NCBI GenBank assembly: GCA_039919825.1
Contig: JBDSEW010000353.1
Span: forward strand, 1-38,556
DNA: 38,556 nucleotides
Reading direction: 5' to 3'
Source of the DNA: Chitinophagales bacterium
GTDB lineage: Bacteria; Bacteroidota; Bacteroidia; Chitinophagales; UBA10324
A model generated the notes under the pieces. It had not been told where the DNA came from. It saw nothing but the letters and a program-made list of their open reading frames with translations, and searched no databases. Position numbers and translations under genes: made by a program. Below, in pieces: positions 16,621-38,556 of the stretch; the stretch's first letter is position 1, and each line of letters begins with the position of its first letter.

Positions 16621-19209
16621 ATGATCAAACGATTTACTTCTCTGCCAACCTATCTCAACATTCGGCATTCATTATTTTCAACTTCTCAGTGCGCAAGGAT
16701 AATCGGGTTGGTTACAATCATTCTTTCTGCTGCTTCAATGGTGTTTGCTCAAACAGTTCCGGTTAAAGAATGGGACAAAAGTTTTGGTGGAACCAAGCAT
16801 GATGAGATGTATGTCATAATACAGACCAATGATGGGGGGTACCTGCTTGGCGGCGATTCAGATTCCCCTATAAGCGGGGAGAAATCTCAGGGCTCGCAAG
16901 GGTTTAGTGATTACTGGATCGTGAAAACAGATGCACTTGGCAATAAAATGTGGGACAAGCGATTTGGTGGTAACTCAAGGGAAGAAATGTTTTGTGTATT
17001 GCAAACATCTGATAGTGGATATCTGCTGGGTGGCTGGTCAATGTCTGATGTTAGTGGTGACAAAACCCAAACCAGCCGTGGAGAGAGTGATTACTGGATC
17101 GTGAAAACAGATTTGAATGGCAACAAACTTTGGGACAAGCGATATGGTGGAACTTCAGGTGATGAGTTGCGTGCTATGGCCCCAACAAGTGACGGAGGAT
17201 TCATTTTGGCCGGGGAATCGCTATCAGGTGCAGGCGGCGAAAAGACACAGGCTAATCATGGTGAATTTGATGTATGGGTGGTAAAGATAAATGCAGAAGG
17301 AATCAAGCAATGGGATGCTTCTTATGGAGGTATTCTGGACGATCGTTTGAATGCCATTCAGCAAACACCCGATGGAGGGTACATAATCGGTTCATGGACC
17401 CTTTCTCCCATTGGTTTTGACATTACACAACCAAGCAGAGGCTCAACGGATATGTGGCTCGTGAAGACAGATGCCAGCGGTGTTAAAAAGTGGGATGGCC
17501 GCTATGGTGGCGATAACAATGAATATTTGTATGCATTAGATCAAACAACTGATGGCGGATTTATTTTAGGCGGGTATACAAGATCTGATGTGAATGGTGA
17601 TGTCACCATACCTGGTAAGGGAGGGTTTGATTTTTGGATGGTGAAAACAAATAGTACTGGAATAAAACAATGGGATAAGCGCTATGGTGGAAATAATGAT
17701 GAAAAAGGAAAATCAATTTTTGAAACTACAGATGGAGGATTTATCATGGGAGGGTGGTCTGAATCGGGTATCAGTGGCGATAAAACGCAGGAAACTAAGG
17801 GTACCGTGGACTATTGGGTAGTTAAATCGGATGTAAATGGCAATAAGCTGTGGGACCTCGATTTTGGCGCGAGTAATGAAGAGCGCTTGCACGACATTCC
17901 GCAGACGAGCGATGGGGGATTTATAATCGGGGGACACTCTTATTCCACAAAGAATGGTGATAAATCGCAGACAACCTTTGGCATAGATGACTATTGGATT
18001 GTAAAGCTATCTGCTTCAGATCCAACAGAACTTTTTTACGCTGATACAGATAATGACGGATATGGAAATGCCGCAATTGATACATTGGCTGTGGCCGCAC
18101 CTCCCGGCTATGTAAGTGATAACACCGATTGTAACGATACTAATGCTGCAGTTAATCCTGCTGCTGCTGAAGTTTGTAATGCAAATGTAGATGACGACTG
18201 TGATGGACTGGCTGATGATGACGATATTAATGTCGCAGGACAGGGAAGTTTTTATACAGATAATGACAATGATTTGTTTGGATCAGGTGCAGCCATTCAC
18301 GCCTGCATTCAGCCTGTGGGAACAGCGGCAGAAAACAACGATTGCAATAACAACAATCCAGCAATAAATCCTGGGGCGTTTGATATGTGCAATGGTATTG
18401 ATGACAACTGCAATTTTACAACGGATGAAAATCCATTGGCGGTTCCAACCATCACGCCCCAGGGAACAATATCAGCCTGCAATGGTGTCGACGTTCTTTT
18501 GACCACAGATAGTCAACCTTCATTAAGCTATCAGTGGTTCAAGGGAAGCACACCTCAGCCTGGCGCAACCAACAATACTTTTATAACCAACAAGGCCGGA
18601 AAATTTAATGTAAAGATAAGCACCATTCCCAGCTGTGAAGCTTCTTCAGCCATCACTGTTATCCAAAGGTTCAGCAAACCTGAAGCGGAGATCACAGCGC
18701 TTGGTAATCTTAATATTTGTGAAACAGGATCTGTTGATCTGAAAGCAAACGGGGGTACCGGACTTCTGTACCAGTGGAAAAAAGGCAACAGCTTGCTCAT
18801 TGGTGCTACCAACTTAATTTATACAACCACCTCGATAGGTTCCTATAGGGTAATTGTTTCGAACGAAGCGGGTTGCAGTAATACTTCACCCAATGTTAAG
18901 GTAACTGCATCTTGCAAGGATGCACAATTGATCTCTGGTGGTTCTGATGGAGAGTTAGTGGTGTATCCCAATCCCGCAGGAAATCACTTGGTGGTGAATA
19001 TGAAATTTAAAGAAGGGGTGAATGCCGAAGCGATTATTGCAGTCGTTGATCTGCTAGGTCGCAGTGTTCAATTGTCTAAAGCACAGGTTTCAGATGGCTT
19101 TCTGCAGTGCGATCTTTATCTTGAAGGAACCATTGCCGATGGCAGTTACTTCGTAAAAGTATGGGTGAACAATCAACTTTTCGTGAAAAACATCCTTCTA
19201 CAGCAATAA
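16621..19209 (+). CDS. secreted multi-domain T9SS cargo protein: 7 x 60-aa propeller-like repeats, two MopE-like Cys/Asp-rich motifs, two Ig-like modules and a Por C-terminal sorting domain
   Basis: Signal peptide ..LSAASMVFAQ. There are seven WDK.(F/Y)GG...(D/E)......T.DGG(Y/F).(L/I)GG.S.S..SG(D/E)K(T/S)Q...G..DYW(I/V)VK.(D/N)..G repeats. DTDNDGYG...DCND.N..VNP.A.E.CN..DDDCDG occurs twice, and YQW.KG....GAT...Y twice. The C-terminus VVYPNPAGNHLVV....GSYFVKV is a T9SS CTD. Confidence 0.85.
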   Translation: MIKRFTSLPTYLNIRHSLFSTSQCARIIGLVTIILSAASMVFAQTVPVKEWDKSFGGTKHDEMYVIIQTNDGGYLLGGDSDSPISGEKSQGSQGFSDYWIVKTDALGNKMWDKRFGGNSREEMFCVLQTSDSGYLLGGWSMSDVSGDKTQTSRGESDYWIVKTDLNGNKLWDKRYGGTSGDELRAMAPTSDGGFILAGESLSGAGGEKTQANHGEFDVWVVKINAEGIKQWDASYGGILDDRLNAIQQTPDGGYIIGSWTLSPIGFDITQPSRGSTDMWLVKTDASGVKKWDGRYGGDNNEYLYALDQTTDGGFILGGYTRSDVNGDVTIPGKGGFDFWMVKTNSTGIKQWDKRYGGNNDEKGKSIFETTDGGFIMGGWSESGISGDKTQETKGTVDYWVVKSDVNGNKLWDLDFGASNEERLHDIPQTSDGGFIIGGHSYSTKNGDKSQTTFGIDDYWIVKLSASDPTELFYADTDNDGYGNAAIDTLAVAAPPGYVSDNTDCNDTNAAVNPAAAEVCNANVDDDCDGLADDDDINVAGQGSFYTDNDNDLFGSGAAIHACIQPVGTAAENNDCNNNNPAINPGAFDMCNGIDDNCNFTTDENPLAVPTITPQGTISACNGVDVLLTTDSQPSLSYQWFKGSTPQPGATNNTFITNKAGKFNVKISTIPSCEASSAITVIQRFSKPEAEITALGNLNICETGSVDLKANGGTGLLYQWKKGNSLLIGATNLIYTTTSIGSYRVIVSNEAGCSNTSPNVKVTASCKDAQLISGGSDGELVVYPNPAGNHLVVNMKFKEGVNAEAIIAVVDLLGRSVQLSKAQVSDGFLQCDLYLEGTIADGSYFVKVWVNNQLFVKNILLQQ
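16771..18030 (+). repeat. seven tandem 180-bp (60-codon) coding repeats
   Basis: WD-(K/A/G/L)-x-(F/Y)-G units start every 60 codons. The exact 27-nt string agtgattactggatcgtgaaaacagat occurs at 16906-16932 and again at 17086-17112, exactly 180 bp apart. Confidence 0.85.
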
Positions 19210-19943: not shown

Positions 19944-21146
19944 TCACGGTTTAAAAACCAGGGTTCTCGAAAATAAGAGCCCTTTGGTTTTACATTGAAT
20001 AACATAGCTGCCACTTGTGAATGTGCTGATGTTTATTGGCAGGCAATTTTTACCTCTTGGTAAAACCGGTGTTTTGATACGAATTAATTCTCTTCCATCA
20101 AGGTCATTCATATATATCTCCAATGATGAAGCAGTTGCCAATTCAAATGTAATCAAGAGATGATCTGTTGAAGGATTTGGATAGACAGAAAGAGATTGTG
20201 TAAAAATTTGCTGTTCTGTAAGGGCTGTTAAACCACCACCATCATCCGTATGATAAATTTTGCCGGTTTGTCCCGCTGCCCACCCTTGTACATTATCTGC
20301 AAAGTACACGTCGTAAAGATCATTGGTAAAAGAAATGGGCTGATTCACCCATGCTTCACCACCATCAACCGTACGAAGAATTTTTGCAGTACCAACGGCG
20401 GTGCCGATTTGGGATGTTGTAAAATGAATGGCAAACAAATCATTGGTGCTTCCGCTGTTTTGCGGCGACCAAACTTGTCCACCATCTGTTGTTTTTAATA
20501 TCGTTCCGTCATAACCGGCAACATAACCGATATCGGTATTAACAAATGAAACACTTCTTAGATCAGCATTGGAACCACTTGTTTGCAATAACCATTCTAT
20601 ACCTCCATTTGTGGATTTAAGAATAGTTCCGTCAAATCCAACTGCATAGGCGATCAAACTAGTAACCATTTCCACACTGCTTAATTCCACTAAAACTCCA
20701 CTCTCCTGCAGATTCCAATTGTTTCCGCTATTCGTTGTTGTAGTGATCACTCCATTTTGACCTGTCGCCATTCCATGTTGTGCATCAAAAAAATGAACAT
20801 GCACCAGGTGTTCGGTTGTAGTGCTGTTCTGGTTGAACCAATTTTCTCCACCATTTTCTGTTCTTAAAATCAATCCTGATTCTCCAACAATGGCACCGTG
20901 AAGCGAATCTGGAAAATACACATCACGCAAAAATAAACCGGTACCCGAGGATTCATTATTCCACGATTCACCCCCTGTAATAGTATGCTTAATGGTGCCT
21001 GTAGTACCAACAGTAAAACCATTCATCGTGCTGGTGAATGAAACACCCAACAATGTTTCAGTTGTTCCGCTTAGCTGGCTAGTCCATTGGGCTGATGCAT
21101 TTAAACCGGGCAACAGAATTAATAGGAGCACGGAAAAGTTTTTCAT
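19944..21146 (-). CDS. Ycf48/BNR-like beta-propeller protein with T9SS C-terminal sorting domain
   Basis: Signal peptide MKNFSVLLLILLPGLNASAQ. Repeated (T/S).(D/N)GG..W motifs are present (TGGESW, ENGGENW, TNGGIEW, TDGGQVW, VDGGEAW). The C-terminus is SVYPNPSTDHLLI....GSYVIQC. Confidence 0.8.
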   Translation of the reverse strand: MKNFSVLLLILLPGLNASAQWTSQLSGTTETLLGVSFTSTMNGFTVGTTGTIKHTITGGESWNNESSGTGLFLRDVYFPDSLHGAIVGESGLILRTENGGENWFNQNSTTTEHLVHVHFFDAQHGMATGQNGVITTTTNSGNNWNLQESGVLVELSSVEMVTSLIAYAVGFDGTILKSTNGGIEWLLQTSGSNADLRSVSFVNTDIGYVAGYDGTILKTTDGGQVWSPQNSGSTNDLFAIHFTTSQIGTAVGTAKILRTVDGGEAWVNQPISFTNDLYDVYFADNVQGWAAGQTGKIYHTDDGGGLTALTEQQIFTQSLSVYPNPSTDHLLITFELATASSLEIYMNDLDGRELIRIKTPVLPRGKNCLPINISTFTSGSYVIQCKTKGLLFSRTLVFKP

Positions 21147-21639
21147 AAGCGGTTGATTGATGAGCAGCATTTCTTTTAAGATATTTCCGAAAATCCAGAA
21201 TTTCGTAGTATTGATTTTAACAGGTCTTTAAAAGAGTGCTTAGCTGCAACTTATTCTTTTATTCAGTTGGAATGTTATTAAATAGACGAACGCAAGGAAT
21301 TATCGACCAACGATATGAAGGTGGATATGTAATTGCAAAAAAAGAAGGAGTCATGTAATTGCTTATTTAATCAGGTCGAATTTTTCAAGCAGCCATTCAC
21401 GATCGAATAATTCGTTGCTAGATTGCATTTCGTTTTTTAATTTGTTTCCTTCAGTCTTCGAAATGTTTTTCAGCGAAAACATTTTTTCACTGAACTTGAT
21501 AAAATGCTGATAGTTGGTACGATGATTTACCGATACACTGTATAAATCAAAAGTTAACTTTAAAGAATAAGTCTTTCAATACTCCTAAAGAAGGATTTTT
21601 ATAAATCTGGCCTGACAAACCTGGTTTCTGATCAGTTAT

Positions 21640-22843: not shown

Positions 22844-23098
22844 TCACTGAATAGAAATTTTCATTACATCTCTTCCTCTTTCACCATTCAACACTACCAG
22901 GTAAATTCCATTGAACAGGTTGTCCATATTAATAGTAGCGGCATATTCATTAATCGCTATTTCAATTATTTTTTGACCGAGAAGATTGAAGACGGTAACG
23001 ACATCCATCTTCAGGTTGCCAGACTGAATAACCAGCTCATTATTATTCATCACATACGAGATGGCTTGAGGCAAATATAAATTGCTTTTCAATTTCAA
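22844..23098 (-). pseudogene. orphan remnant of a T9SS (Por) C-terminal sorting domain
   Basis: ..LYLPQAISYVMNNNELVIQ....VTVFNLLGQKIIE........INMDNLFNGIYLVVLNGERG..VMKISIQ has the spacing and hydrophobic pattern of a T9SS CTD. There is no ATG (the track start is TTG), and a TGA lies 13 codons upstream, so no cargo domain is attached. Confidence 0.55.
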
Positions 23099-23400: not shown

Positions 23401-24060
23401 TCAAAAAGTGGATAAATCAATAGGATGGATAGAATTTATTTCTTCCCTCTCACTGAATAAAAAATGCTCATTTATTTTATAGTTAAATAAGATATCCTGA
23501 AAGAGTTCATAGTATACTTCTCTTTCCTTCGCGGGAATTTTTAGTGTTATATCGTAAATTATACCTTTTACTTCCGTATACATAGCCAAAGAAAGGAACA
23601 AAGAATCCCTAATATCTGTGGTAAACTCTCCATAGAAAGATTTCTTGTTTTCAAAAACCAATTCCCTGAGTGAATACTCCTTAAATATTTCATTGGTATC
23701 ATCTTTAAGCTGTATATACGCCTCTCTAAGATAATTGTCAAGTGTAATGTTGTTTAGCTCTTCATCATGCCTAAGAACCACAAAAAAAGTGTTGGTATCT
23801 GAATCATTAAGTTGAGTAAAAAACAAAAAATTATTTTGTTTTTCCGGTTCCCATAAAACAGGACAACAAATTCTATCATACTGAACTTCATAACAGTGCC
23901 AGTCCTTTGGATTAAGAGACTTCCCCTTTCTAATTTGGAGCTCATCTACTTTCAAATACTCCTTTTCAGTATTATTAATACTATTGGTATTAAAATTACA
24001 AGAAATCCATAAAGGGATTATTATCATAATGGGCAGCAATCTATAGCATTCTAATATCAT
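23401..24060 (-). CDS. hypothetical lipoprotein (219 aa); candidate orphan immunity protein
   Basis: The N-terminus ..LLPIMIIIPLWISC is a signal peptide with a lipobox-like I-S-C. The gene is A+T-rich and lies downstream of the Rhs toxin-immunity pair. I recognise no family motif. Confidence 0.55.
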   Translation of the reverse strand: MILECYRLLPIMIIIPLWISCNFNTNSINNTEKEYLKVDELQIRKGKSLNPKDWHCYEVQYDRICCPVLWEPEKQNNFLFFTQLNDSDTNTFFVVLRHDEELNNITLDNYLREAYIQLKDDTNEIFKEYSLRELVFENKKSFYGEFTTDIRDSLFLSLAMYTEVKGIIYDITLKIPAKEREVYYELFQDILFNYKINEHFLFSEREEINSIHPIDLSTF

Positions 24061-24907: not shown

Positions 24908-25327
24908 TTATTCGAGTGGTGGTAGATTAAAATATTTTAAGTACAATCTCAATTCCTTTGCTGATTTAAGTAACATTCTTTCCAATTCATCTTTGGGATG
25001 AAATTTAGCAAAGTATCTATTATTTGAACTCATTTCGCTTTTATCAGCCTTTGGCATAACAATAGCATTAAGTTGACTTAAATGCAGTGTCCTTGACTTA
25101 TCATCATAATCAGGCATTTCCCCATTTTGCAATTTAAAAACAATAATTTCTAAATGATCTTCTATGTTTTCATAAGAAATCGAAACTACTTTTCCTTCAC
25201 CCATGTATTCTACATCATAAAAAGCATTTCCATTAATAGTCTGTTTTATCTTCTTAAAATCATAGTTGGATTTAAGAAATGAAAAAAATGACTTTACAGT
25301 TTCAACATATTCTAACCCTTCTATCAT
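24908..25327 (-). CDS. candidate cognate immunity protein of the Rhs C-terminal toxin (139 aa, no signal peptide)
   Basis: Its ATG (25325-25327) overlaps the toxin TGA (25324-25326) as ATGA. It is small, acidic in places, A+T-rich, has no signal peptide or TM segment, and sits in the canonical immunity position. Confidence 0.7.
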   Translation of the reverse strand: MIEGLEYVETVKSFFSFLKSNYDFKKIKQTINGNAFYDVEYMGEGKVVSISYENIEDHLEIIVFKLQNGEMPDYDDKSRTLHLSQLNAIVMPKADKSEMSSNNRYFAKFHPKDELERMLLKSAKELRLYLKYFNLPPLE

Positions 25328-28300
25328 TGTTTTATAATTTGAAATGCATTCGGGTGAAGATTTAAATAGTTCTTAATCATATTTTGTTCCATTTGATAAA
25401 AAATACTTGGTGTTCCTCTTGTGGGATCCAGACCTATATCAATAATTGGTCGTCCGCTTCTCATTTGCCGTAAAATCCATTTACGATTATAAGCCATTAT
25501 CTTACCTGATATTTGTTGTTTTGTACCAATAAAAGTTGGCATATTTTCTAAAATTATTGAACCAGGATTTTGTATTGCTGCGACACTTACACGTTTCATT
25601 CCTTCTCCAATAATTGTTTGCCTCCCCTCTGTAATTGCAAGCTCTTTTGCTGTTGTGCTTATTCCTGCCTTTACTAAATTTCCTGTTCCAAATGTTGCTA
25701 CCGCGATCGCTACTTCCGTTATAATTCCATTCTCTTCAATCCGGTCTATTGAATTTTGTGGTCCCCACCTACTGCCAGGAACAACAATTTGTACTTCTGA
25801 GTTTTTAAGATGATCTTCTAATTCAGATATTCTTCCTCTTTCTCCGGGACTTATAATATCGAAAGTAGAAGTTACAGCACTAGTATTGAATTCTTTATCA
25901 TACTCGGTGAATCCATAATTAACCTTAAAAGTCTTATGTCCAATTTTTTCATAGTTGCCACCAAGTCGGTTTGCCTTTTCATGCGCTACTTTTCGTTCTT
26001 TAGAGTCAAGAAAGAACATGCCATTAGGATCGACTCCAATAATAGGATTATTCAATACGTAGCTATAAGCAGTCCATGATAAGTACGCCTCCGCCATCGG
26101 ATCCACCACCCACCACCTTCCCACCTGCGGGTCATACCACCTTGCTCCGTAATCCAGCCAGTTTAGATTCAAAGAACGATGCAACTCCTTACCATTATAA
26201 AGATAGTTGTTTGTATCTGAATTTTCCTGTTGCCAGCTGATGTCGGCAATCAGGTTTCCATAAGGGTAATAGTGGTTGAACTGTATAACGGGATTGATCT
26301 GTGTACCAAGTTTAAGAAAAAGGGTATCGAACCAAATGTCCTGCTCGCTTTCATTATGCAAAGAAACCCGAAGGATATATTGCTGTGTGCTGTCGGAAAC
26401 GTGAATACCAATGGAGTCAGTGATACGGCTCCAGTTATTGGCGGTATCTACATCTATGCGCCATTGATTGATTTCCTGATTAGCAGTATCACGCAATGAA
26501 AGTTCCAGGTAAGCGTCCGGTGAGCCGCTGGTAGAATCTGTCCGTAATGCATTGCCAGAATTATTTTTCTTTCGTGAGAACAATTCAAATAACCCAACAA
26601 TGTTCAACTGTAAACCAAAGGGTGGTTTATTTATGTAGTTGGCATCATCTGCAGGAATAGCTTTGTGCGGCAATGTTTGCATTTCAAAACTGAAAGAAGG
26701 TCGGAAAGGTGTATGTCCGTGGTCTTTTGGAGGTGCTTCCTTCTGAGGATTATTTTCTGAATAATAATAGTACACGGATACTTCCAGTGTATCTCCGGAT
26801 TTTACAGGTATCTCCGTATACGGACCCTCTGTATTAAATAATTTTCCGGAGGAATTGCCCTGCAACGCCACTTCATTGTTGCGGACTGTGCTTACGTTTT
26901 TGAATTTCGGAAATTTGTTTCCTTCCTCATCGGCATTTAGCTCAAAGGTCAGGTTGCTTTTTGTCCAGTTCAGCCCCTGGCCTTTAAATACTACTCTTAT
27001 GTTTCCTAAATGATCCTTGATGTAATAATAGGGCATCCAGAAATCAAGCGTATCCTTCAGCAGGTATCCGTCAGTAAAAAGAATTTTTTGTGGCTTACCC
27101 TCTTCGTGGATGATGTCGCCGAAGTAACCAGTAATATTCGTTTGCAAATTCTCCGTTGTTTCTTCTTGGAGCTTCGCACCATTTGCATTATAGGTTATCT
27201 TTAACTGGTCTGATGATTTCGCAATCAATGAAGGAAGATTCAAATGGTTATAGGAGATTGCAATAGCCTTATTGCCATCATTCACCAGATTTCCGTTCAC
27301 ATCATATCCATAATCGTTTTCACCAGGAGTATCCTTAAAATCAGGACTTTTGTCCCAAGTTACCAATGAACCGGCATCAGAGACCGCCTTCAATTGATTT
27401 CCTTTGTAACTGTAATTTAATTGATCACTTATTCCATAAGTGTACAATTGTGTTTGCTGATTGTAAGATATCGCACCATGTACATTCATTGTTTTTATGT
27501 TGCCATTATCGTCATACGATAAATTGTCAACGGTATATTGATCTGCTTCTGTAATTACCACACCTATTGCTGTACCATATCTTGCTTTCGTCAGTCGATT
27601 AAGCGGATCATAACTGTAACCATACACACGGGTATCAGGATCATGGTTGCTTTTCCATGCCATCCAGGAAATGTTGCCTGCAAATTGTGCAGCTGCGTCA
27701 AGCAATGGGTAACCGTCTGTATAGTGCAATTCCATTCCCCAGTAATCACCATTGTCTTTTACATTTTCAAGATTATTAATTGAAGTGACCCATCCACGGA
27801 TATTGTATTTATAATCCAGTGTCTGCATTGATTTTTGGATAGGCACTGTACCTGTTCCTATTGACTGGTTGTGCAACTTCTGTTTCAACAATTGACCCAG
27901 TTCATTGTAGGTTAAACTGGTTGTCCAGATTTCCGGCTGACCATCAACCTCCAGAAATGTATTTTTTACTCTACCTGCATGATCATACTCATTCCTGGTT
28001 TTTCTGGTGAGTTCTGTGCTGATGCCAAGGCCACCGCCCACGGGAGCAACGGTGTAATGGTGAATGCGCTCCTGCTGCAACAGCTCTCCTGAAAAACTGT
28101 ATGCAAACGTTTCACTCTCTGCTTCGTCTTCATAATTGTTACCCATTGTTTCAATCACCCTTCCTTTGTAGTCGTAGAAGGAAACACTCTTTTCAAATAC
28201 TGCTGGCATTGAATTCAATACTTTACTGAACTGGCCGGTAAGTTTGTTTCGTGATCGTGCTGTTTGAGAATTATTGGAAGTATAATCTGAAGTTCCGTTA

Positions 28301-31300
28301 TTATTGAAATCATAATCATCATAGTAATTCAGGCTGAGCTCATCAAGAGCGGTTTTTGGATATGCAAAATTGGTATATCCATTCGAAGTATTACTTCTTG
28401 TTTCATTGCAAATAGCGGATGATAACCAGCGTTCATCCTGCAATTGCGAGGGTGTTTTACCAGTGATTGTAGTAAGTCCCGAAGAAATACTTCTTTTCAA
28501 CCCATCATATTTCTGATAAGACCATTTATTGGACTTCCTCAGATTTGGATCCTGAGTAAGTATCACACGATTTAATTGATCATATATATAATAGCTCCAG
28601 TCAATACCAGGTAATTTTTTAGCAGAGATCAGCCCCCGCTTATTGTATTGATAGAAGAAATTCCACAAGTCATTTGAAGAAGAAACTGTGTAATTATTCA
28701 GGGAAGCCAGTTTACTATACCCTTCAGGAGTTATCACCTGTACCAATCTTTCAAGGTCATCATACACATAATAGGTGTAGTTAAAATTGAATTGTTTTTG
28801 ACCGGGTCCTGTAATCTCACTCTTCGGATTTTTCTCCAGTATTGTTTTTCCTTTTTTATCCTGATAAGTGATGGAGATGTTGTCATTTTCATCGGTTGTT
28901 TCTTTAACTGATAATGTTCCTGCGGGATAAAAAGAAGCACCAGACGAGTTGGATGAAGTTGTGCTGAATACAAACAGGTGAACTTCATTAATGTAGTTAG
29001 AGCGATAGTTATACTGAATATTATGACTACCCAGCTTCCATTCTTCACCAGGGTTAGCTTCTTTTGTAACACGGTTTAAGGGAGAGTTCTCGTATTCTGT
29101 TTCGGTGAATGGATAGCCGGTATGTGCTATTTCCGCGGCGGAAGAATAAAAATTTAGCTGATCATCAAAAGCACTACTCTTGAACTGACCAGGCAATAGA
29201 GAAGAGGTATAAGGCAAATAATTGCGGGGCTGCCTTCCTGAAGCATCATAGGTTATGTAAGTGACTATATCCTTGCCCGATGGACTTTGACCACAATCCA
29301 GCATTTGAATGGGTCTTCCAAGACCGTCCAGGAAATTTATTGAGCGACGACTTTGTGTATTTGGCAATGTTGCAGCGGTAAGAGCAGCTTTAGCAACACC
29401 CGATGCTGAAGCAATTTCTGTCCGTATATAGTTGTGATCTGCAAGGTTGTTTTCATCATGGTAGTGGTAATCTGTGAAGCTTAATCCATTGCCGAAATGA
29501 TCTTCAGCATATTGAAAGCGGTTTAGGTTATTATATTCAAAGTGATTCATGTAACCGTTTTCATCACCAATTTCAGTAAGGCCAATCAGTGGGAGATAGG
29601 AGTACGTTGTTCCTGTTGCTGACTCAGGGTAGAACTGCAATTCATCCAATTTTCCCGTTCCTGATAAGGTAAAAGAACCACTGCTGTTGAAATTTAAATG
29701 ATATTGATAAAAAGTAAATCCGGAAATGGTTTCTCCGGAAACTGTTGAGACCATTGTAAATCCAGTTCCTGAAATAGTTGTTGCTGTTGTTGACCAAAAG
29801 CTTAGAACATATGTTCCCGGAACGGGAACATAATGAGAAACAAAACCCAGGTTAAAGTAGCGACTGCCAGAAATGGTTTTTGAAACAGGTCCTGTTATGC
29901 TTTCACTTGCGACATTTGTTTGCGGATAACTAAACTGACCTTCGTAATCATTTTCAAATCCTGTATATGCAACATCTGAAAAGTTAGCGTTTTTAAAGAT
30001 TGCACCAATTAATCCTGATGGATTTTCATAAATCACTGAAGTGACGCTGCCAAATGGTTCGTGAAACTGTAAGGGTTGCGCACGATCATTGTAGAGGTCA
30101 AATTTCTGAATGCATCTGTACCGGGTATCACGTAAAAAGATATTGTTGCTTACCATTGAAACTTTGAAAGTTGATTTGACCAGGGGTTCCTTCAAATCAA
30201 GTTGAAAAATTGTATCCTGTACTACCTTAGTACCTGACATTTTAAACTTAGTGAGTGATCCCTCTACAAGTAAGGTATCAATTACAGCATTCAGTTTGGC
30301 AGAGCTCTGATTAACTCCACCGGAACTACCATTGGTGTATTTTATCCCGCCATCTAAAATGCCTCCATTAACTTCCGCAACATTATTGAGCGTATTTGCC
30401 TTTAGCAGGCTTTTTTTCCTGAGTATGTATTTGTACTCTTCAACTATGGCATTGTGAATGTGTTTTTTATTGACCATTGAGTCTATGGCAATCAGCATGG
30501 GGTTAGAACCTAAGTAGTTGAACACTCCATAATCAGAAGGATATCGCATGATATGCATTTCTTCTATTCCATTGGAGCGGGTGATTTGTTCACGTGTAAC
30601 CTGGATGTGTTCCGGATTATCATAGAAATATTTTTTAACAGTGGCTAATTGTGAGCCATCCTGAAAATGCTCTGTGGTAACCTGTTCATTTTGGTGAACC
30701 CATTGGGTTGGATAGAAATAAAAGGTAAATTTAAATTCATCTGCTCCTATTCCCTGAAACATTTGATCATTTATAGAATAAGCTACTTTTAAACCTGTGA
30801 TGGAATGAAAGTGATTTTCTGGTTCAAATTCGTATTTGTTTGATGTTTCAATTTGAAGCTGGTTATCTGAATTGTAGGTTTTTTCATTAATTAACAATCC
30901 TCTTTTGTATTCATTATTAATAGGCGGGGCAAACGGATATTTAACGACTCCAATATTTGGAGCAAAAGAAAAAACACTCAACTTCCGGCCAAAAGATCCA
31001 CTCCCATTCGATAAAAGTTTCCCCAATATTTCAGTTACTTCAGGATAAAAAACAGGATTTCCATTGGAAGAATAAATGGGTAGTTGGGAATTTGAGGTTC
31101 TGGCGTAGAGATTACACAATGTGCCCGGACCACTAATTTCACTAAAGCCCCTTGTAGTGTAAGCGTAATCATAAACAATTGTACTTAGTAGAAAACCGCT
31201 TGATCGCTCTGGTTCAGCAGCCATGTGATAGGAATAGTGCACCACCTGATCATCCAGAGTATCAACATTATTTTTTCTCAGCCGCACCTCCTCTATGCGA

Positions 31301-33099
31301 ACACCTCCTGCAAGTATTGATTTTATGGTATCGTCCTGGCGTTCATAATAATAGGCTGTAATTGTTGCATGCGCTGCCGTTCCGGAGCCAATCATTTCAG
31401 CAGATAGATAGTATGTTCCTGGTGTTAAGAACAAACAATTCTCATAATTATCCGTGGTTCCTCTTTCAAACAGTACCCCACCACTGCTGTTGGTGAGCAT
31501 AACAGAGGCTTCACACTCACAAGGCGGGTTACCGAATCCAATAGATGTGGCAATCTTTATTGTTTGATCGGCATTTACAAAGAATGTATCTGCTGGCTTT
31601 GTGCTGTTTACACCATTTGATGAAGCAAATGCGCTCATTGCAATGCGAGGGATTTCATTTGCGTCGAAAGTATCAATTCCAAATTCATCCATGTATCTTC
31701 CAAACCGGTTTCCTTCATAAGTAAACAAGGCATATCCTCCGGTTGGATATTGAATGCTTTTTAGAATAGCTGCTTTTGAAAAATTGAAGTCAGGCAGCCT
31801 GTTTGCTCCATAAGCAGCACCGTTGAATAATTTACATTCTTCCCCTGGATAAGCAGGCACGAGTGTTTGGTTTGAGAGGGCACCATTGTAATATCCCCAG
31901 TGGTCCTGTGCCTTTGAATTTCTTGGAGGCAAAGGTGTGGGATCATATTCAAAATTATATGCAGGAAGAGCCGTACCATCTTTTCCCTTCTCAATCAGTT
32001 CTTTTAACATCAATCTTTTACACTCCCGGTCATTACAGAAATTTGGCTCGGTTGGATGGTAGTCATATTGTAATGAAAAGGATTTGATAACTTCATTCTG
32101 AAGATTCACAATTTCTATACGGGATAAAGCATAGTCATATTCTGCATCCTCTCTTTCTGTTTCTGCGTAAAATTTAATTGCACCTTCAGAAAAGTTAATG
32201 GCTTGAAGCCTTTTGAGGGCAATTTCTATTTCGGTTGAACATTCAGTATCATGATCAGTACAATAAAGCCAGGGATCCTCTAATCTTGTTTCGCTTGTGG
32301 TGGCATAATATAATATGGAGCCATCAGCGTAATCAAAGGTTACAATAGTGCCCTTTGCACTGGTGATGGATTCTAAATACCAGGCTGACTTAATATTCTC
32401 ATCAATCTGTTCATCGCCTCCTCCCTCACAAACTGTGGTAGCTCTTGTTAATTCAATGTTATTGAAAAGATAGGAAGTGCCATCAGCCGTAATAATCTTA
32501 AACGAGGTTAATTGTTGTGATGCAACGATATTAATGTTTTGATATGGAATTGTTCGAAAGATTAACAGTCCCTGGGGATCAATCCCTTCAGTTATAAATT
32601 TTCCGGAATATCCTGCGAAGTTGAAAAAGAACTCATCCGGTTGCACATCAAGAATATGATCAGCGATATCCTGCAAATATTCATGCCGGTCCTCTTCAGT
32701 GTAGGATAAAAATTCCGAAATGCTTCCGACATTATTAATAAAGCCGGCAATTGGTTTTTCATCCGGAAGCCCCATCACTGTTCTTGTTATTACTCCTCCT
32801 GCATTTAGTGACCATCCCAATCCAACCCACGAAGCAATTTCTCCAACCTTAACTCCACTGGCATGATAAGAAACTGAAATTGGAAGTGTTAAATCATGGT
32901 CAGTAACTTGATACAGGGGAATGTCAATAGTCGCAATACCTGCACTGAGGTTAACAGGAGTAAGACCATATTTTGCAAGCGCTGCTGCAGTTGGTGCCGG
33001 AGGAATAATGGAGACATTTAAAGGATCAACCGGCTGCGAATAAAGAGCGGTATGTATTGCAAATAATAGAAGCGGAAATATTTTCCAATAGCTTTTCAT
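25324..33099 (-). CDS. giant Rhs/YD-repeat polymorphic toxin precursor (2591 aa) with a Sec signal peptide
   Basis: Signal peptide MKSYWKIFPLLLFAIHTALYS. An SpvB-like segment is present: LTLPISVSYHASGVKVGEIASWVGLGWSLNAGGVITRTVMGLPDE. INFLDGLGRPIQ marks the shell entry. There are many YD repeats (YDASGRQ, YDHAGRV, YNELGQL, YDPLNRL, YDDNGNI, YDVNGNL). The Rhs-associated core reads DHLGNIR...YYPYGN...NNYLYNGKE...YGARWYDPQVGRWWVVDP...NNPIIGVDPNGM. Confidence 0.95.
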   Translation of the reverse strand: MKSYWKIFPLLLFAIHTALYSQPVDPLNVSIIPPAPTAAALAKYGLTPVNLSAGIATIDIPLYQVTDHDLTLPISVSYHASGVKVGEIASWVGLGWSLNAGGVITRTVMGLPDEKPIAGFINNVGSISEFLSYTEEDRHEYLQDIADHILDVQPDEFFFNFAGYSGKFITEGIDPQGLLIFRTIPYQNINIVASQQLTSFKIITADGTSYLFNNIELTRATTVCEGGGDEQIDENIKSAWYLESITSAKGTIVTFDYADGSILYYATTSETRLEDPWLYCTDHDTECSTEIEIALKRLQAINFSEGAIKFYAETEREDAEYDYALSRIEIVNLQNEVIKSFSLQYDYHPTEPNFCNDRECKRLMLKELIEKGKDGTALPAYNFEYDPTPLPPRNSKAQDHWGYYNGALSNQTLVPAYPGEECKLFNGAAYGANRLPDFNFSKAAILKSIQYPTGGYALFTYEGNRFGRYMDEFGIDTFDANEIPRIAMSAFASSNGVNSTKPADTFFVNADQTIKIATSIGFGNPPCECEASVMLTNSSGGVLFERGTTDNYENCLFLTPGTYYLSAEMIGSGTAAHATITAYYYERQDDTIKSILAGGVRIEEVRLRKNNVDTLDDQVVHYSYHMAAEPERSSGFLLSTIVYDYAYTTRGFSEISGPGTLCNLYARTSNSQLPIYSSNGNPVFYPEVTEILGKLLSNGSGSFGRKLSVFSFAPNIGVVKYPFAPPINNEYKRGLLINEKTYNSDNQLQIETSNKYEFEPENHFHSITGLKVAYSINDQMFQGIGADEFKFTFYFYPTQWVHQNEQVTTEHFQDGSQLATVKKYFYDNPEHIQVTREQITRSNGIEEMHIMRYPSDYGVFNYLGSNPMLIAIDSMVNKKHIHNAIVEEYKYILRKKSLLKANTLNNVAEVNGGILDGGIKYTNGSSGGVNQSSAKLNAVIDTLLVEGSLTKFKMSGTKVVQDTIFQLDLKEPLVKSTFKVSMVSNNIFLRDTRYRCIQKFDLYNDRAQPLQFHEPFGSVTSVIYENPSGLIGAIFKNANFSDVAYTGFENDYEGQFSYPQTNVASESITGPVSKTISGSRYFNLGFVSHYVPVPGTYVLSFWSTTATTISGTGFTMVSTVSGETISGFTFYQYHLNFNSSGSFTLSGTGKLDELQFYPESATGTTYSYLPLIGLTEIGDENGYMNHFEYNNLNRFQYAEDHFGNGLSFTDYHYHDENNLADHNYIRTEIASASGVAKAALTAATLPNTQSRRSINFLDGLGRPIQMLDCGQSPSGKDIVTYITYDASGRQPRNYLPYTSSLLPGQFKSSAFDDQLNFYSSAAEIAHTGYPFTETEYENSPLNRVTKEANPGEEWKLGSHNIQYNYRSNYINEVHLFVFSTTSSNSSGASFYPAGTLSVKETTDENDNISITYQDKKGKTILEKNPKSEITGPGQKQFNFNYTYYVYDDLERLVQVITPEGYSKLASLNNYTVSSSNDLWNFFYQYNKRGLISAKKLPGIDWSYYIYDQLNRVILTQDPNLRKSNKWSYQKYDGLKRSISSGLTTITGKTPSQLQDERWLSSAICNETRSNTSNGYTNFAYPKTALDELSLNYYDDYDFNNNGTSDYTSNNSQTARSRNKLTGQFSKVLNSMPAVFEKSVSFYDYKGRVIETMGNNYEDEAESETFAYSFSGELLQQERIHHYTVAPVGGGLGISTELTRKTRNEYDHAGRVKNTFLEVDGQPEIWTTSLTYNELGQLLKQKLHNQSIGTGTVPIQKSMQTLDYKYNIRGWVTSINNLENVKDNGDYWGMELHYTDGYPLLDAAAQFAGNISWMAWKSNHDPDTRVYGYSYDPLNRLTKARYGTAIGVVITEADQYTVDNLSYDDNGNIKTMNVHGAISYNQQTQLYTYGISDQLNYSYKGNQLKAVSDAGSLVTWDKSPDFKDTPGENDYGYDVNGNLVNDGNKAIAISYNHLNLPSLIAKSSDQLKITYNANGAKLQEETTENLQTNITGYFGDIIHEEGKPQKILFTDGYLLKDTLDFWMPYYYIKDHLGNIRVVFKGQGLNWTKSNLTFELNADEEGNKFPKFKNVSTVRNNEVALQGNSSGKLFNTEGPYTEIPVKSGDTLEVSVYYYYSENNPQKEAPPKDHGHTPFRPSFSFEMQTLPHKAIPADDANYINKPPFGLQLNIVGLFELFSRKKNNSGNALRTDSTSGSPDAYLELSLRDTANQEINQWRIDVDTANNWSRITDSIGIHVSDSTQQYILRVSLHNESEQDIWFDTLFLKLGTQINPVIQFNHYYPYGNLIADISWQQENSDTNNYLYNGKELHRSLNLNWLDYGARWYDPQVGRWWVVDPMAEAYLSWTAYSYVLNNPIIGVDPNGMFFLDSKERKVAHEKANRLGGNYEKIGHKTFKVNYGFTEYDKEFNTSAVTSTFDIISPGERGRISELEDHLKNSEVQIVVPGSRWGPQNSIDRIEENGIITEVAIAVATFGTGNLVKAGISTTAKELAITEGRQTIIGEGMKRVSVAAIQNPGSIILENMPTFIGTKQQISGKIMAYNRKWILRQMRSGRPIIDIGLDPTRGTPSIFYQMEQNMIKNYLNLHPNAFQIIKQ
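25327..26016 (-). other. C-terminal toxin payload domain of the Rhs protein (230 aa after VDPNGM), family unassigned
   Basis: It starts FFLDSKERKVAHEKANRLGG and ends ..IIDIGLDPTRGTPSIFYQMEQNMIKNYLNLHPNAFQIIKQ. It has no Cys and only 4 His. There is no HNH, HxxD, HExxH, GHH or deaminase motif. Confidence 0.7.
26278..26976 (-). other. approximately 230-aa insertion inside the Rhs-associated core (aa about 2042-2274), beta-sandwich / CBM-like by pattern
   Basis: It lies between DHLGNIRVVFKG and NHYYPYGN. It contains GDTLEVSVYYYYS ... AYLELSLRD...W..I......V....QYILRVSLHNESEQDIWFDTLFLK, a pattern like galactose-binding-like jelly rolls. Confidence 0.5.
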
Positions 33100-34781: not shown

Positions 34782-36338
34782 TCAATGCAGGAATATGAGT
34801 TTCTTCGTTTGTAACTCGTTACCTTTTTTAAACGTGTAATAATATGTGTTGGAGGAGGATTTCAAATTAACCGGTTCCAGTGTAAATGTGTGCCATCCTT
34901 TCTTCAGAAAGCCATTGTCAACCAACTTCTTTACTTCTTTTCCCATAAGGTCATATAAGGTAAGCGAATAATTTCCGGGTATGGTAATGTTTACATCAAT
35001 CTTTGTTTCATCGCTAAAAGGATTAGGATAATTCTGATACAGCATGAAATGACTGGATTCGAATGCAGGTGTTTCTTCAATCAGTGTTGCTACATCCACC
35101 TGGGCAGTCCATAACGATGTCGCGAAGCCGTCCTGTCTTGTCCATATAGGTGCAATTTTTCCGTCGTAAACACTGATGTTGGAGTAGTCGCCAAAGAATA
35201 CGTCGGTGGTGAGCACAAATGGCTCACTGCTGATTTTTTGGTTGGTAAATGTAACACCTCCATCTGTTGAATAGGCCAGGTAAACGTCTGTACTCTGATC
35301 GCTGTAGTCGCGGCGATCATAAAAAAGTACGTAGATGTATCCGGTAGTTTGATCCACATCCATCCAGGTGAGGAATTGATGTTTGGCATATTCATCATCA
35401 TTCACTTTTAGGGGAATGCTCCACGTTGTTCCTTCGTCCGTTGATTTCGACAGCCATACATCGGTATTGTCGGTGCCATTGCGCTGATCGGTCCAGTTGA
35501 CATAGATGGTTCCATGATAAGCACCATTGCTCAAATCGGATTTTGTAACCGGCAATCCATTGCAGCGGATCATTCCGGGAATATAATAATCCCAGCCACC
35601 CGGCTGATCCGAAACCACGATGTCATCATCCAGCCATGTTTCACCACCGTCCAATGACCTGTCGAAGAACAAAGTATCACGGTTCGACCAGCATACATAT
35701 ACTTCACCATTTACGCCAATGGCAGGCACTGCTCCTTCTGTAGTATTATCACCATCAATACAATCGCCGGCTAATCTATTGATACGAACAGGTGTGCTCC
35801 AGGTTGCGGCATCGTCAGTTGACTTTGAAAAAAGAATGACAGAGCTGTCATTTGGATCGGAGCTTCCATATTGATCAAACTGTGTCCAGGTTACATACAT
35901 ACTATTGGTGTTCTGGTCTACAGTAGTCCAGGCTTTATCCTGGGCGTGCGTTCCGTTTAGCCCGGTATAGGTTCCTGCAGACCATGATGTGCCATTATCT
36001 GCGGAACGCTGGCAAACGATGCGGTCGATCCAGTTGCCGGATGCAGGATTGGAAAGGTGGATGTAGTAAAAATTTCCTGCAGTGTCGGTAAAGATGCAGG
36101 GATCGCCCCATACGCCATAAGGAGATTCTAATTGATCTTTTTCCCAGGTAAGGCCCCCATCAAGCGATTGATAAACATAATTGATATTGGCTCCTGCAAC
36201 AATGTTGTTTGTGTTTTTAGGATTGATGCAGATGCTGGGTTCTTCAGGGTTACCGGTATCATCGATCTTGATATTTAAAAACTGGCCAAATGAATATTCA
36301 TGGCTTAAAAGAAAAACAAACAACAGGAATTTTATCAT
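34782..36338 (-). CDS. BNR/Asp-box repeat beta-propeller (sialidase-like glycoside hydrolase fold) with T9SS C-terminal sorting domain
   Basis: Six Asp-boxes: SLDGGLTW, SADNGTSW, STDDAATW, SLDGGETW, STDEGTTW, STDGGVTF. The C-terminus is LYQNYPNPFSDETKI....GNYSLTLYDLMGKEV. No FRIP motif is seen. Confidence 0.8.
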   Translation of the reverse strand: MIKFLLFVFLLSHEYSFGQFLNIKIDDTGNPEEPSICINPKNTNNIVAGANINYVYQSLDGGLTWEKDQLESPYGVWGDPCIFTDTAGNFYYIHLSNPASGNWIDRIVCQRSADNGTSWSAGTYTGLNGTHAQDKAWTTVDQNTNSMYVTWTQFDQYGSSDPNDSSVILFSKSTDDAATWSTPVRINRLAGDCIDGDNTTEGAVPAIGVNGEVYVCWSNRDTLFFDRSLDGGETWLDDDIVVSDQPGGWDYYIPGMIRCNGLPVTKSDLSNGAYHGTIYVNWTDQRNGTDNTDVWLSKSTDEGTTWSIPLKVNDDEYAKHQFLTWMDVDQTTGYIYVLFYDRRDYSDQSTDVYLAYSTDGGVTFTNQKISSEPFVLTTDVFFGDYSNISVYDGKIAPIWTRQDGFATSLWTAQVDVATLIEETPAFESSHFMLYQNYPNPFSDETKIDVNITIPGNYSLTLYDLMGKEVKKLVDNGFLKKGWHTFTLEPVNLKSSSNTYYYTFKKGNELQTKKLIFLH

Positions 36339-37410: not shown

Positions 37411-38556
37411 TTAACGCTCAATCACCAATTTACTGGTCACCACTTCTTTATTGGTAGCGAGTTGCAGCAGGTATAAACCTGAAGGTACATCGCTGCTGTT
37501 GAATGTTACCTGATGACTTCCTTCCGGATACATTGCATTACTTATTTCATCTATCACTTTTCCATTGAGATCAATCAGCCTGATAGTTATCGGTGATGCA
37601 TCGTATAAAGAGAATGAAATGGTGGTGTTATCTGAGGCAGGATTGGGGAAAATTCCTGCTTCGAGGGGTGCATTTACCTGCTCATTTAACAATCTAAGTG
37701 GAGGAGTTGTGAAATCGGGACCCATGGTAAAAGGTGATGCGATGAGTGGCTGGTTGGCACATATACTTTGAACGGCCCATTTATAGGTGGTGTTCGGAAG
37801 CAGGTTGCCGAGTTTTTTTGAATTTCCTGAGGATGATTTTTTAATTCCAGCAGGGTTACCGTCCTGATGATAAAAAATCTTATAGCCTATGGCGCCAGGT
37901 GCAACATTCCACTGTACTTTAGCCGAAGTGCTTGTAAGATTGGAAACGAAAAGTTCGATAGGTTGCGGGCAGTCATTTACTGCTAACTTGCTCAGCACGA
38001 CGTCATCCACATAGAATTCAGCATCCTGAGCATTAAAGGCATATGCAAAAATGTTCATCCCTCCCCACATCTTTTGTGCACCGGTTCCGGTAGCGCCGAG
38101 CGACCATTGCCAGTTGTAAACAGAGGCTGAATTAATGTAAAGCACAGCAAGATCATTGTTGAGATCCACACTCACTTTGATATCGTTCCACGTGCCGGGA
38201 TTGTAGCTAATAGGGATTGTTGCACCGCCCGCCAGTGCATTTCCACCACCTGCATTATCAAAATATACCTCCAGCATCCATGCGATGCCGGGCACCGCGC
38301 TTTGCTGAAGGTTGAAGTAAGCTCCCTTGCCGATTACTATGTACATCTTCATCTTCAATTCATAAACTCCGGAAGTGTAGTCGGATGGAAATGGGAGAAC
38401 AAGATCCGTGGGCCCCGTATTACCGACAATGTAAACGGAATTGGATTCGCTATATGCCTGCGCATCGCTTACCAGTGCATCTTCGGATGCAGTGCCACCG
38501 GACCACGTAGTCCAGAGTGCAGAATTAGCTGCAAGCAGTGAACCGGCAGTATAACT
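37411..38556 (-). CDS. secreted LamG/jelly-roll-like + fibronectin-III protein with T9SS C-terminal sorting domain (partial; 5' end outside the window)
   Basis: The frame stays open from 38358 to the window edge (..SYTAGSLLAANSALWTTWSGGTASEDALVSD..). An FN3-like segment is present (P..L.VSNLTSTSAKVQWN.APGAIGYKIFY). The C-terminus is GIFPNPASDNTTISF...GLYLLQL...KLVIER. Confidence 0.8.
   Translation of the reverse strand, partial: SYTAGSLLAANSALWTTWSGGTASEDALVSDAQAYSESNSVYIVGNTGPTDLVLPFPSDYTSGVYELKMKMYIVIGKGAYFNLQQSAVPGIAWMLEVYFDNAGGGNALAGGATIPISYNPGTWNDIKVSVDLNNDLAVLYINSASVYNWQWSLGATGTGAQKMWGGMNIFAYAFNAQDAEFYVDDVVLSKLAVNDCPQPIELFVSNLTSTSAKVQWNVAPGAIGYKIFYHQDGNPAGIKKSSSGNSKKLGNLLPNTTYKWAVQSICANQPLIASPFTMGPDFTTPPLRLLNEQVNAPLEAGIFPNPASDNTTISFSLYDASPITIRLIDLNGKVIDEISNAMYPEGSHQVTFNSSDVPSGLYLLQLATNKEVVTSKLVIER

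Follow-up and report, generated by a model that had tools for sequence, protein, structure and literature searches.

Introduction

Rhs capsules are understood in three settings: the Tc toxins, where they sit on TcA, the effectors of type VI secretion systems (T6SS), where they sit on the spike, and the teneurins. The gene analyzed here belongs to a group that fits none of these. It is an open reading frame (ORF) of 2591 amino acids (aa), hereafter the toxin ORF, followed by a putative immunity gene of 139 aa, and both lie on contig JBDSEW010000353.1 from a Chitinophagales metagenome-assembled genome (MAG). This contig is the whole window, that is, the 38.5-kb stretch of DNA that was analyzed.

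Several described systems come close to it. Among the Tc toxins, natural TcB-TcC fusions exist, for example in Burkholderia pseudomallei (PMC7861908). A class of "TcdB/TcaC-type" polymorphic toxins was defined computationally by Zhang et al. 2012 (PMC3482391); it combines a signal peptide, SpvB, an integrin-like propeller and RHS repeats, and it includes Bacteroidetes. WapA from Bacillus subtilis is an Rhs toxin with a Sec leader, whose C-terminal nuclease, active in the cytoplasm of the target, is inhibited by the leaderless WapI (PMC4436062). Finally, bacterial teneurin-like proteins possess Sec leaders, a YD shell and immunity genes, and a survey with hidden Markov models (HMM) found them in six phyla, Bacteroidota not being among them (PMC13018210).

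We consider it probable that the toxin ORF is a single-chain, Sec-exported form of an Rhs capsule with two components, a type common in Bacteroidota, and that it serves interbacterial antagonism. In the following, the TcB-like half of this capsule is called the A part and the TcC-like DUF6443-Rhs half the B part.

Fusion of two usually separate genes

The toxin ORF has an ATG start and occupies positions 25324-33099 of the minus strand. A previous interpretation of this DNA, which we call the sequence-only reading, described it as a single giant Rhs shell. The ORF is real; its size, however, results from the fusion of a TcB-like with a TcC-like DUF6443-Rhs gene, which most relatives keep apart, and the N-terminal 1240 aa, left unexplained by that reading, would be half of the capsule.

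The split loci L002, L004 and L005 illustrate the separate state. There, a B gene encoding DUF6443, the RHS shell, the core and the tip lies tens of bases behind the A gene, and the B gene is followed in turn by one or more small ORFs. The split B gene normally starts 10-100 bp downstream of A, and both products have their own leader ending in ...A|Q. In such loci, DUF6443 is the N-terminal domain of the downstream gene. Among cultured bacteria, the split system is carried by Chitinophaga japonensis DSM 13484 (L012), Pedobacter planticolens (L045) and Chitinophaga filiformis (L024). Stand-alone A homologs stop within a few residues once their alignment reaches residue ~1214 of the toxin ORF, and stand-alone B proteins align from residue ~1248, which corresponds to B's own residue ~84, past the B leader. 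Between these two points, a linker of 31 residues (29359..29451 (-), residues 1217-1247) stands in for the stop codon, the intergenic gap and the second leader of the split loci.

A genome scan with one genome per species yielded at least 577 related places. They belong mainly to Bacteroidota (Chitinophagaceae, Cytophagales, Flavobacteriales, Sphingobacteriales and Bacteroidales), with a few in Gemmatimonadota and Balneolaceae. Arrangements were counted in the 80 best of these loci, all from species-level genomes. A split A then B was found in 45 of them (median gap ~20 bp), and 10 contain fused A-B genes, with 11 fused ORFs; no B was found nearby in 8, and 14 are cut by a contig end. The junction of the toxin ORF is itself shared: P0178, an 80%-identical protein from another MAG, reads through the same A-B junction, and locus L007 (9845-17974, Chitinophagaceae MAG JADJAG010000006) encodes a 65%-identical fused ORF of 2626 aa with the same layout. 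A frameshift or an assembly artefact as the origin of the fusion is ruled out by these two cases and by the recurrence of fusions in other lineages.

Two further observations concern the distribution of these genes. A Flavobacteriales MAG carries two fused A-B genes in tandem, of 1910 and 2430 aa, on a single contig (L022:116-13475). Relatives of the TcB-like half beyond Bacteroidota were found in L009, L011 and L033 (Longimicrobiales/Gemmatimonadota) and in L074 (Balneolaceae), which suggests lateral spread.

The TcB-like N-terminal half

The precursor begins with a predicted Sec-type signal peptide (33037..33099 (-), residues 1-21, predicted cleavage YS|Q). This leader, MKSYWKIFPLLLFAIHTALYS|QP, is basic in its n-region and hydrophobic in its core (Kyte-Doolittle 2.0 over 12 residues), and Q22 is conserved in at least 90% of the homologs; it was called from heuristics and conservation only. 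In Bacteroidetes, the substrates of signal peptidase I habitually begin with Gln after the cleavage site, a rule with which the conserved Q22 fits.

The A part itself (29452..33036 (-), residues 22-1216) comprises a putative SpvB-like region at the N-terminus, RHS-type beta-hairpins and two inserts (residues ~470-590 and 1040-1150) that look like beta-sandwiches as judged from sequence and model secondary structure only. The first 1240 aa gave no significant Pfam match. When the N-terminal thirds, the insert at residues 2040-2290, the tip and the immunity protein were compared with Pfam at E<=10, only a sub-threshold SpvB match and noise were returned. These 1240 aa nonetheless match more than 3800 proteins, mostly stand-alone and of ~1150-1200 aa, which cover the query nearly end to end; the stand-alone A proteins terminate in YD repeats. 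Searches of the PDB sequences with the whole protein and with a profile gave, for the N-terminal half, just a core motif in the teneurin-like protein 9pt5 and a chance match, so that a fold comparison was needed.

Structures were modelled for the A half and for the toxin domain. The AlphaFold2 model of residues 22-1216, built with 58 homologs, is nearly all beta and has a predicted local distance difference test (pLDDT) score of 83.7 and a predicted template-modelling score (pTM) of 0.82. Foldseek against the PDB retrieved TcB proteins (YenB 4igl/5kis and TcdB2-TccC3 6h6e/6suf/4o9x) with E 1e-17 to 1e-16 and query-normalised template-modelling (TM) scores of 0.30-0.38. T6SS Rhs proteins and teneurins came with comparable or weaker E-values (~1e-16 to 1e-9) and TM scores of ~0.1. 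As for the SpvB-like region, SpvB passes the Pfam threshold at the same position in the homologs P0235 and P0266, and hhalign aligned the first ~365 columns of the family profile with the SpvB region of P0351 (E 7e-5, probability 63%). P0351 is a canonical SpvB/FG-GAP/TcdB-Rhs protein that carries the same toxin and has FG-GAP/VCBS/TcdB_mid-type matches. In the toxin ORF and eight relatives, Pfam gave no match to the propeller families FG-GAP, VCBS and TcdB_mid. Because TcB is the best fold match, an SpvB signal is seen in homologs and with hhalign and no propeller was detected, we take A for half of a capsule that resembles TcB but lacks the propeller docking on TcA, with B as its TcC-like counterpart. 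The toxin ORF would then be a natural BC fusion of the kind known from some Tc loci.

One would then wonder whether the toxin ORF could simply be a canonical Tc (ABC) toxin's BC subunit, with TcA elsewhere in the genome and the cargo injected into eukaryotic cells. This would account for the closeness of the N-terminal half to TcB; natural TcB-TcC fusions are known, as mentioned above, Tc homologs including TcA have been reported in a Bacteroidota symbiont (PMC8831229), and the genome beyond the window is not visible. We find this explanation unlikely all the same. Both halves of the split loci carry Sec leaders, whereas Tc toxins are released by lysis (PMC10847048), and the propeller was not detected in the toxin ORF or in eight relatives. 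There is no TcA-sized conserved neighbour in the 80 best loci, where a non-A/B ORF of more than 1300 aa lies within 10 kb in just two cases, both on the opposite strand. In addition, a conserved cognate immunity gene accompanies the toxin, and orthologs bear antibacterial colicin D or cell-wall amidase tips (see below).

A bacterial teneurin-like protein, in which a YD shell anchored at the surface is combined with an FN-plug and an NHL propeller, seems still less plausible, and we regard it as very improbable. The 9pt5 motif is the only PDB sequence match, and teneurin-like proteins also combine Sec leaders with immunity genes (PMC13018210); that match, however, is confined to the Rhs core, which both share. 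For the modelled A half, Foldseek gave TM ~0.09 to teneurins and 9ifo, against 0.3-0.38 for TcB. Lipobox, adhesin domains and Pfam matches to NHL or other propellers are absent from the toxin ORF, and the phylum is missing from the six of the HMM survey.

The TcC-like half and its core

The B part spans residues 1248-2361. It opens with the DUF6443 domain (29002..29379 (-), residues 1241-1366, Pfam PF20041, E 1.7e-39), which is followed by the RHS/YD repeat shell (26983..29001 (-), residues 1367-2039). Pfam RHS_repeat (PF05593) matches at residues 1819-1842 (E 2.6e-8), six YDxxG-type motifs are present in the toxin ORF, and the shell is colinear with the B proteins of at least 40 loci. Between shell and core lies a variable insert of ~235 aa (26272..26982 (-), residues 2040-2276), with the look of a beta-sandwich and a low-complexity Pro/His-rich loop and without any Pfam match at E<=10. 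The corresponding gap measures ~230 aa in L005 and L014 and ~15-25 aa in L022, L049, L069 and L070.

The Rhs-associated core, or aspartyl autoprotease (26017..26271 (-), residues 2277-2361), matches NCBIfam TIGR03696 (Rhs_assc_core, E 1.5e-15), is 88% identical to that of L007 and holds an R-x-YDP...DP...PxxxxDPNGM motif. Its last stretch, YGARWYDPQVGRWWVVDP...NNPIIGVDPNGM (residues 2317-2361), contains YGARWYDP from residue 2317 and DPNGM from residue 2357; NNPIIGVDPNGM fits PxxxxDPxG, and a second DP lies 24 residues upstream. The only PDB sequence match of the core is the equivalent motif of 9pt5 already mentioned. By analogy with characterised family members, autoproteolytic cleavage is predicted after DPNGM2361. 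As in the Tc toxins, the A and B parts would close into one capsule. Together, the matches to PF05593, TIGR03696 and DUF6443 and the PxxxxDPNGM motif bear out the earlier proposal of an Rhs/YD polymorphic toxin with an autoproteolysis core; the variable tip is borne out by L007 (see below).

Cargo and putative immunity gene

The tip that follows M2361 comprises 230 aa, and the cargo is basic, with an isoelectric point (pI) of 9.35. It had been taken for one toxin, a view that the comparison with L007 does not sustain. Identity with the latter stays high over ~120 residues beyond the cleavage site and then collapses to about 21% at residue ~2485, which means that the tip has two parts, a lineage-conserved pre-toxin of ~119 aa and a swappable toxin of 111 aa. 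The recombination point with respect to L007 thus lies inside the tip (~residue 2485) and not at the DPNGM cleavage site. The pre-toxin segment (25660..26016 (-), residues 2362-2480) contains ...ATFGTGNLVKAG..., has no Pfam match and is absent from other carriers of the same toxin. It is possibly needed for packaging or target entry. An identification of its TFGTG segment as a PT-TG pre-toxin found no Pfam support here, PT-TG being seen solely in the distant carrier P0420.

The toxin domain (25327..25659 (-), residues 2481-2591) precedes the stop codon at 25324-25326. Matches to a 231-aa tip query span just its last 100-130 residues, and from the alignment emerges a domain of 111 aa (QTIIGEGMKRV...DIGLDP..PSIFYQMEQNM...) that is always located at the protein end. 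We found 57 close matches and, by exhaustive profile search, 533 cluster representatives, always C-terminal, in carriers of ~100-3433 aa. These carriers include DUF6443-Rhs, DUF6531-Rhs and Big/SpvB/FG-GAP/TcdB-Rhs proteins and a PT-TG protein, and such a C-terminal position on varied carriers is the signature of a polymorphic-toxin module. At the same position, L007 has a Colicin_D tRNase (E 2.7e-23), followed by a different acidic ORF of 81 aa.

The toxin profile matched nothing in Pfam or among the PDB sequences. The AlphaFold2 model of the domain (pLDDT 96-98) shows a small alpha/beta fold, a four-stranded b-a-b-a-b-a-b sandwich. Foldseek against the PDB and BFVD returned nothing better than E 0.02, and the best matches (E 0.02-0.1) were to generic folds: lumazine synthase, Ras, RecR Toprim, FEN1 and RuvC. 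Toprim, PIN and RNase H were considered for the toxin and left unassigned, the fold matches being generic at E>=0.02. The positions conserved across 51 diverse members read G, E, R, V, N, W, D, G, D, R, S, F, Y and E, of which E, D, D, E, R, N, W and S vary hardly or not at all. Because four of the conserved residues are acidic (E2499, D2554, D2558 and E2571) and the domain has a pI of 10.2, our leading guess, which is speculation, would be a metal-dependent nuclease or phosphoesterase.

The putative cognate immunity gene (24908-25327, minus strand) overlaps the toxin gene by ATGA, as the sequence-only reading had noted: the coding strand has AAA CAA TGA TAG at the junction, and the immunity ATG lies within the ATGA shared with the toxin stop (nucleotides 25327-25324, both genes on the minus strand). 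Its 139-aa product is predicted to be cytosolic and lacks any hydrophobic stretch (at most 0.8 over 12 residues and 0.5 over 19). Hydrophobicity and the conservation of Q22 thus agree with the previous assignment of a leader to the precursor and of none to the immunity protein. The two partners have opposite charge, the immunity protein being acidic (pI 5.7) and the cargo basic. The G+C content (GC) is 0.35 in the toxin tip, 0.29 in the immunity gene and 0.31-0.32 in the next 1.5 kb, against 0.39-0.40 in the shell, and the lower value of tip and immunity gene is expected for a horizontally exchanged cassette.

The immunity protein has 332 homologs of ~135-140 aa, all from Bacteroidota; no Pfam domain is recorded among the 120 matches listed, and the family profile has no PDB match. 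In L087 and L088 (Marinifilum) and L089 (Mangrovibacterium), an immunity homolog directly follows a DUF6443-Rhs gene that ends in the same toxin and has an A gene upstream. A fourth pairing is found in L001, an orphan core-plus-toxin cassette, and the CCATGATA overlap is the same in all four loci. Several toxin and immunity matches also sit on shared contigs. The toxin-immunity pairing is therefore well supported by comparison, and the 139-aa protein would neutralise the toxin.

These data bear on another possibility, namely that the protein is a structural capsule retained in the periplasm or at the surface and that the downstream ORF is unrelated to it, so that there would be no functioning toxin-immunity pair. 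No outer-membrane export route is evident and neither small domain could be given an activity, which would suit such a structural role. The toxin and immunity families, however, co-occur with the ATGA overlap in unrelated genomes, including the orphan cassette, and the toxin domain behaves as an exchangeable module at the C-terminus of several kinds of carrier. This possibility consequently has little to recommend it in our opinion.

The tips found elsewhere in the A/B family give an indication of the target. They include a CHAP/NlpC-P60 cell-wall amidase (L004) and Ntox44 (L005), and some are unassigned. Lipoprotein-type ORFs come after the amidase and Ntox44 tips, and leaderless ORFs after colicin D (L007) and the present tip. 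The suggestion that the location of the immunity protein tracks the target of the toxin thus holds in these relatives, and this correspondence argues for an antibacterial and not an anti-eukaryote function. In addition, L023:18163-22161, L073:19297-23281, L060, L067 and L085 have, downstream of the main gene, arrays of short ORFs that start inside the Rhs core and bear other tips, and these look like orphan toxin cassettes. Altogether, immunity genes, bacteria-specific toxin types and orphan cassettes point to interbacterial antagonism and not to an anti-eukaryote Tc toxin.

Genomic neighbourhood and delivery

The toxin locus is surrounded by housekeeping genes, including thrS, infC, rplT, sbcCD-like, recR and aat. 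Among the genes of the window, none belongs to a T6SS or a phage tail, and none encodes TcA. The sequence-only reading had listed Hcp, VgrG, PAAR, TcA and C-terminal sorting domains of the type IX secretion system (T9SS) as absent from the window. This stands for the T6SS and TcA, but sorting domains do occur, though not on the toxin: four neighbouring genes are predicted T9SS cargo, which are MopE-like (16621-19209 (+)), YCF48/BNR-like (19944-21170 (-)), BNR sialidase-like (34782-36338 (-)) and fn3 (37411-38358 (-)). With four cargo genes in 38 kb, the T9SS of the host is therefore active-looking, yet the Rhs protein does not use it. Two small ORFs complete the picture. One of 84 aa (22844-23098 (-)) is nothing but a T9SS C-terminal sorting domain (Por_Secre_tail, E 1.3e-6) and is probably the leftover of a disrupted cargo gene. 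The other, of 219 aa (23401-24060 (-)), lies in the low-GC stretch just past the immunity gene, matches no family, has a leader of the lipoprotein type (...PLWIS|C), and could be an orphan periplasmic immunity protein from an earlier cassette.

After Sec export, the location of the toxin precursor is the periplasm. No lipobox, T9SS sorting domain, PAAR or VgrG is present on the toxin protein, and no delivery route is identifiable in the window, as had been anticipated. One may assume that the protein is nevertheless the cargo of a T6SS of subtype iii or of the T9SS, with the machinery outside the window. Rhs toxins are classic T6SS effectors, and the host T9SS is evident from the four neighbouring genes. 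A cleavable Sec leader, however, is incompatible with loading on the T6SS from the cytoplasm, and a PAAR, VgrG or DUF4150-type N-terminus is absent. With regard to the T9SS, the C-terminus of the protein is the toxin and not a sorting domain, and that of stand-alone A proteins is made of YD repeats. We thus give this explanation almost no credit.

Candidates for accessory functions come from the relatives. A protein of ~480 aa, which we call U, is encoded within 10 kb in 20 of the 67 loci with enough upstream sequence, and directly upstream of A in 12 (examples are L008:8458-9891, L014:8460-9884, L025:8419-9903 and L031:8244-9905); one of the 12 adjoining copies, in L031, precedes a fused gene. 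U combines a leader with a long coiled coil and a beta-rich C-terminal region that ends in an aromatic residue (F), and it has no Pfam match. From these features, U may be an outer-membrane partner of the capsule system. Tail-fibre-like ORFs with a C-terminal coiled coil adjoin the A/B genes in 12 loci (among them L012:7935-9865, L017 and L020:7588-9090), and in some loci they sit between U and A. Neither U nor the tail-fibre-like neighbours are present in any of the six frames of the window. The capsule itself has three beta-sandwich-like inserts, the two of the A part and that at residues 2040-2276, the last being present in some relatives only; they are candidates for receptor binding.

An attractive hypothesis would be that the A/B family constitutes a TcA-independent, Sec-dependent capsule system with which Bacteroidota deliver antibacterial toxins. 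The two halves, each with a leader, would assemble outside the cytoplasm, U (with the look of an outer-membrane beta-barrel with a coiled coil) would help as a dedicated partner in about one third of the loci, and the route by which diderm competitors are reached and entered would differ from contact-dependent inhibition by the type V secretion system (T5SS-CDI), from the T6SS and T9SS and from Tc injection. We put this forward tentatively, and rather doubt it as a whole.

Proposed mechanism

The following scenario could link these observations. After export and folding, the shell would enclose the C-terminal 230 aa, and the aspartyl protease of the core, to judge from its conserved motif, would free the cargo after DPNGM2361. 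As indicated by comparison, the cargo would consist of the lineage-conserved pre-toxin and of the horizontally swapped, basic alpha/beta toxin of 111 aa, from an undescribed family. Surface or vesicle display, receptor binding via the inserts and receptor-triggered release would be our best guess for the intervening steps, made with low confidence. In the cytoplasm of competitors, the toxin might act as a metal-dependent phosphoesterase, probably a nuclease, a speculative proposal drawn from its E/D/D/E/R set. The acidic, leaderless 139-aa protein, found paired with the toxin, would shield the producer.

Several points weigh against a single-chain capsule for interbacterial antagonism. The closure of A and B is deduced from Tc structures, A being the capsule half that was modelled, and the TM scores of this model to TcB are modest, even if they are the best of all PDB matches. 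The Pfam SpvB match of the toxin ORF itself (PF03534, residues 53-259) is sub-threshold (E 0.052, 13.2 bits for a cut-off of 22). The activity of the toxin is a guess, the fold searches having given generic alpha/beta matches alone (E>=0.02). A periplasmic end-point without an outward route would make an antibacterial role hard to explain. Finally, no experiment on the toxin protein or its family turned up in the searchable literature.

Comparison with known systems

In the literature on DUF6443, on the toxin motifs and on Tc-like and Rhs systems of Bacteroidota, we found no description of the A/B family. We could not find described a pair of propeller-less TcB-like and DUF6443 TcC-like genes with their own leaders, no TcA and immunity genes, nor the toxin and immunity families. 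The system-level novelty formerly claimed for the window is borne out in part only: at least 577 related loci exist, there are precedents of cytoplasm-targeting Rhs toxins with a Sec leader, and the claim overlooked the main point of the anatomy. The kind in general is already known, and the gene of the window is an ordinary, though fused, member of a large catalogued but uncharacterised family. What is gained from the window itself is modest, being one more member of that family, and the main questions lie beyond sequence. The group as a whole is of wider interest. It is very large and mostly found in environmental Bacteroidota, a phylum that dominates soils, rhizospheres and guts. The way in which such capsules cross the outer membrane of the producer and the envelope of the competitor, once worked out, would add a delivery mode to those of interbacterial warfare. 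The locus also yields two unannotated families, one of toxins and one of immunity proteins, which number hundreds of members each, and a natural single-chain capsule may be convenient for structural work.

Among the known systems, the Rhs effectors of the T6SS (RhsA 7q97, Tse5 8cp6 and Tse15 8uxt) share with the toxin ORF an Rhs shell, a core autoprotease, a polymorphic tip and an adjacent immunity gene. They differ by their PAAR- or VgrG-linked N-termini, the lack of a leader, a shell of ~1000 aa and a TM score to the A part of ~0.1. The teneurin-like proteins (9pt5 and 9ifo) are likewise Sec-exported YD shells with an enclosed toxin and an immunity gene, but they possess TIP/adhesin N-termini along with an FN-plug and an NHL propeller, and the structural similarity to them is lower. 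WapA resembles the toxin ORF in its leader and, presumably, in its target compartment; it is, however, a wall-anchored protein of a Gram-positive bacterium, with a single smaller shell and no TcB-like half.

The class of Zhang et al. 2012 has in common with our protein the signal peptide, the RHS repeats, the polymorphic tips and, putatively, the SpvB N-terminus, and P0351 would be a textbook member of it. No propeller was detected here, in contrast with that class, and the passages searched in that paper mention neither the usual split into two genes with leaders nor DUF6443. The Tc toxins, for their part, are set apart by the features of the present family: Sec leaders, no propeller gate detected, no TcA nearby in 80 loci, immunity genes, antibacterial tips, occurrence in Bacteroidota and a DUF6443 domain that opens the C-like half. 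It is nonetheless the TcB-TcC cocoon (YenB-YenC2 4igl and TcdB2-TccC3 4o9x) that provides, with TcB, the best structural match of the first half of the toxin ORF, and the two architectures share two Rhs-repeat halves, a core protease, a variable cargo and, putatively, an SpvB-type start.

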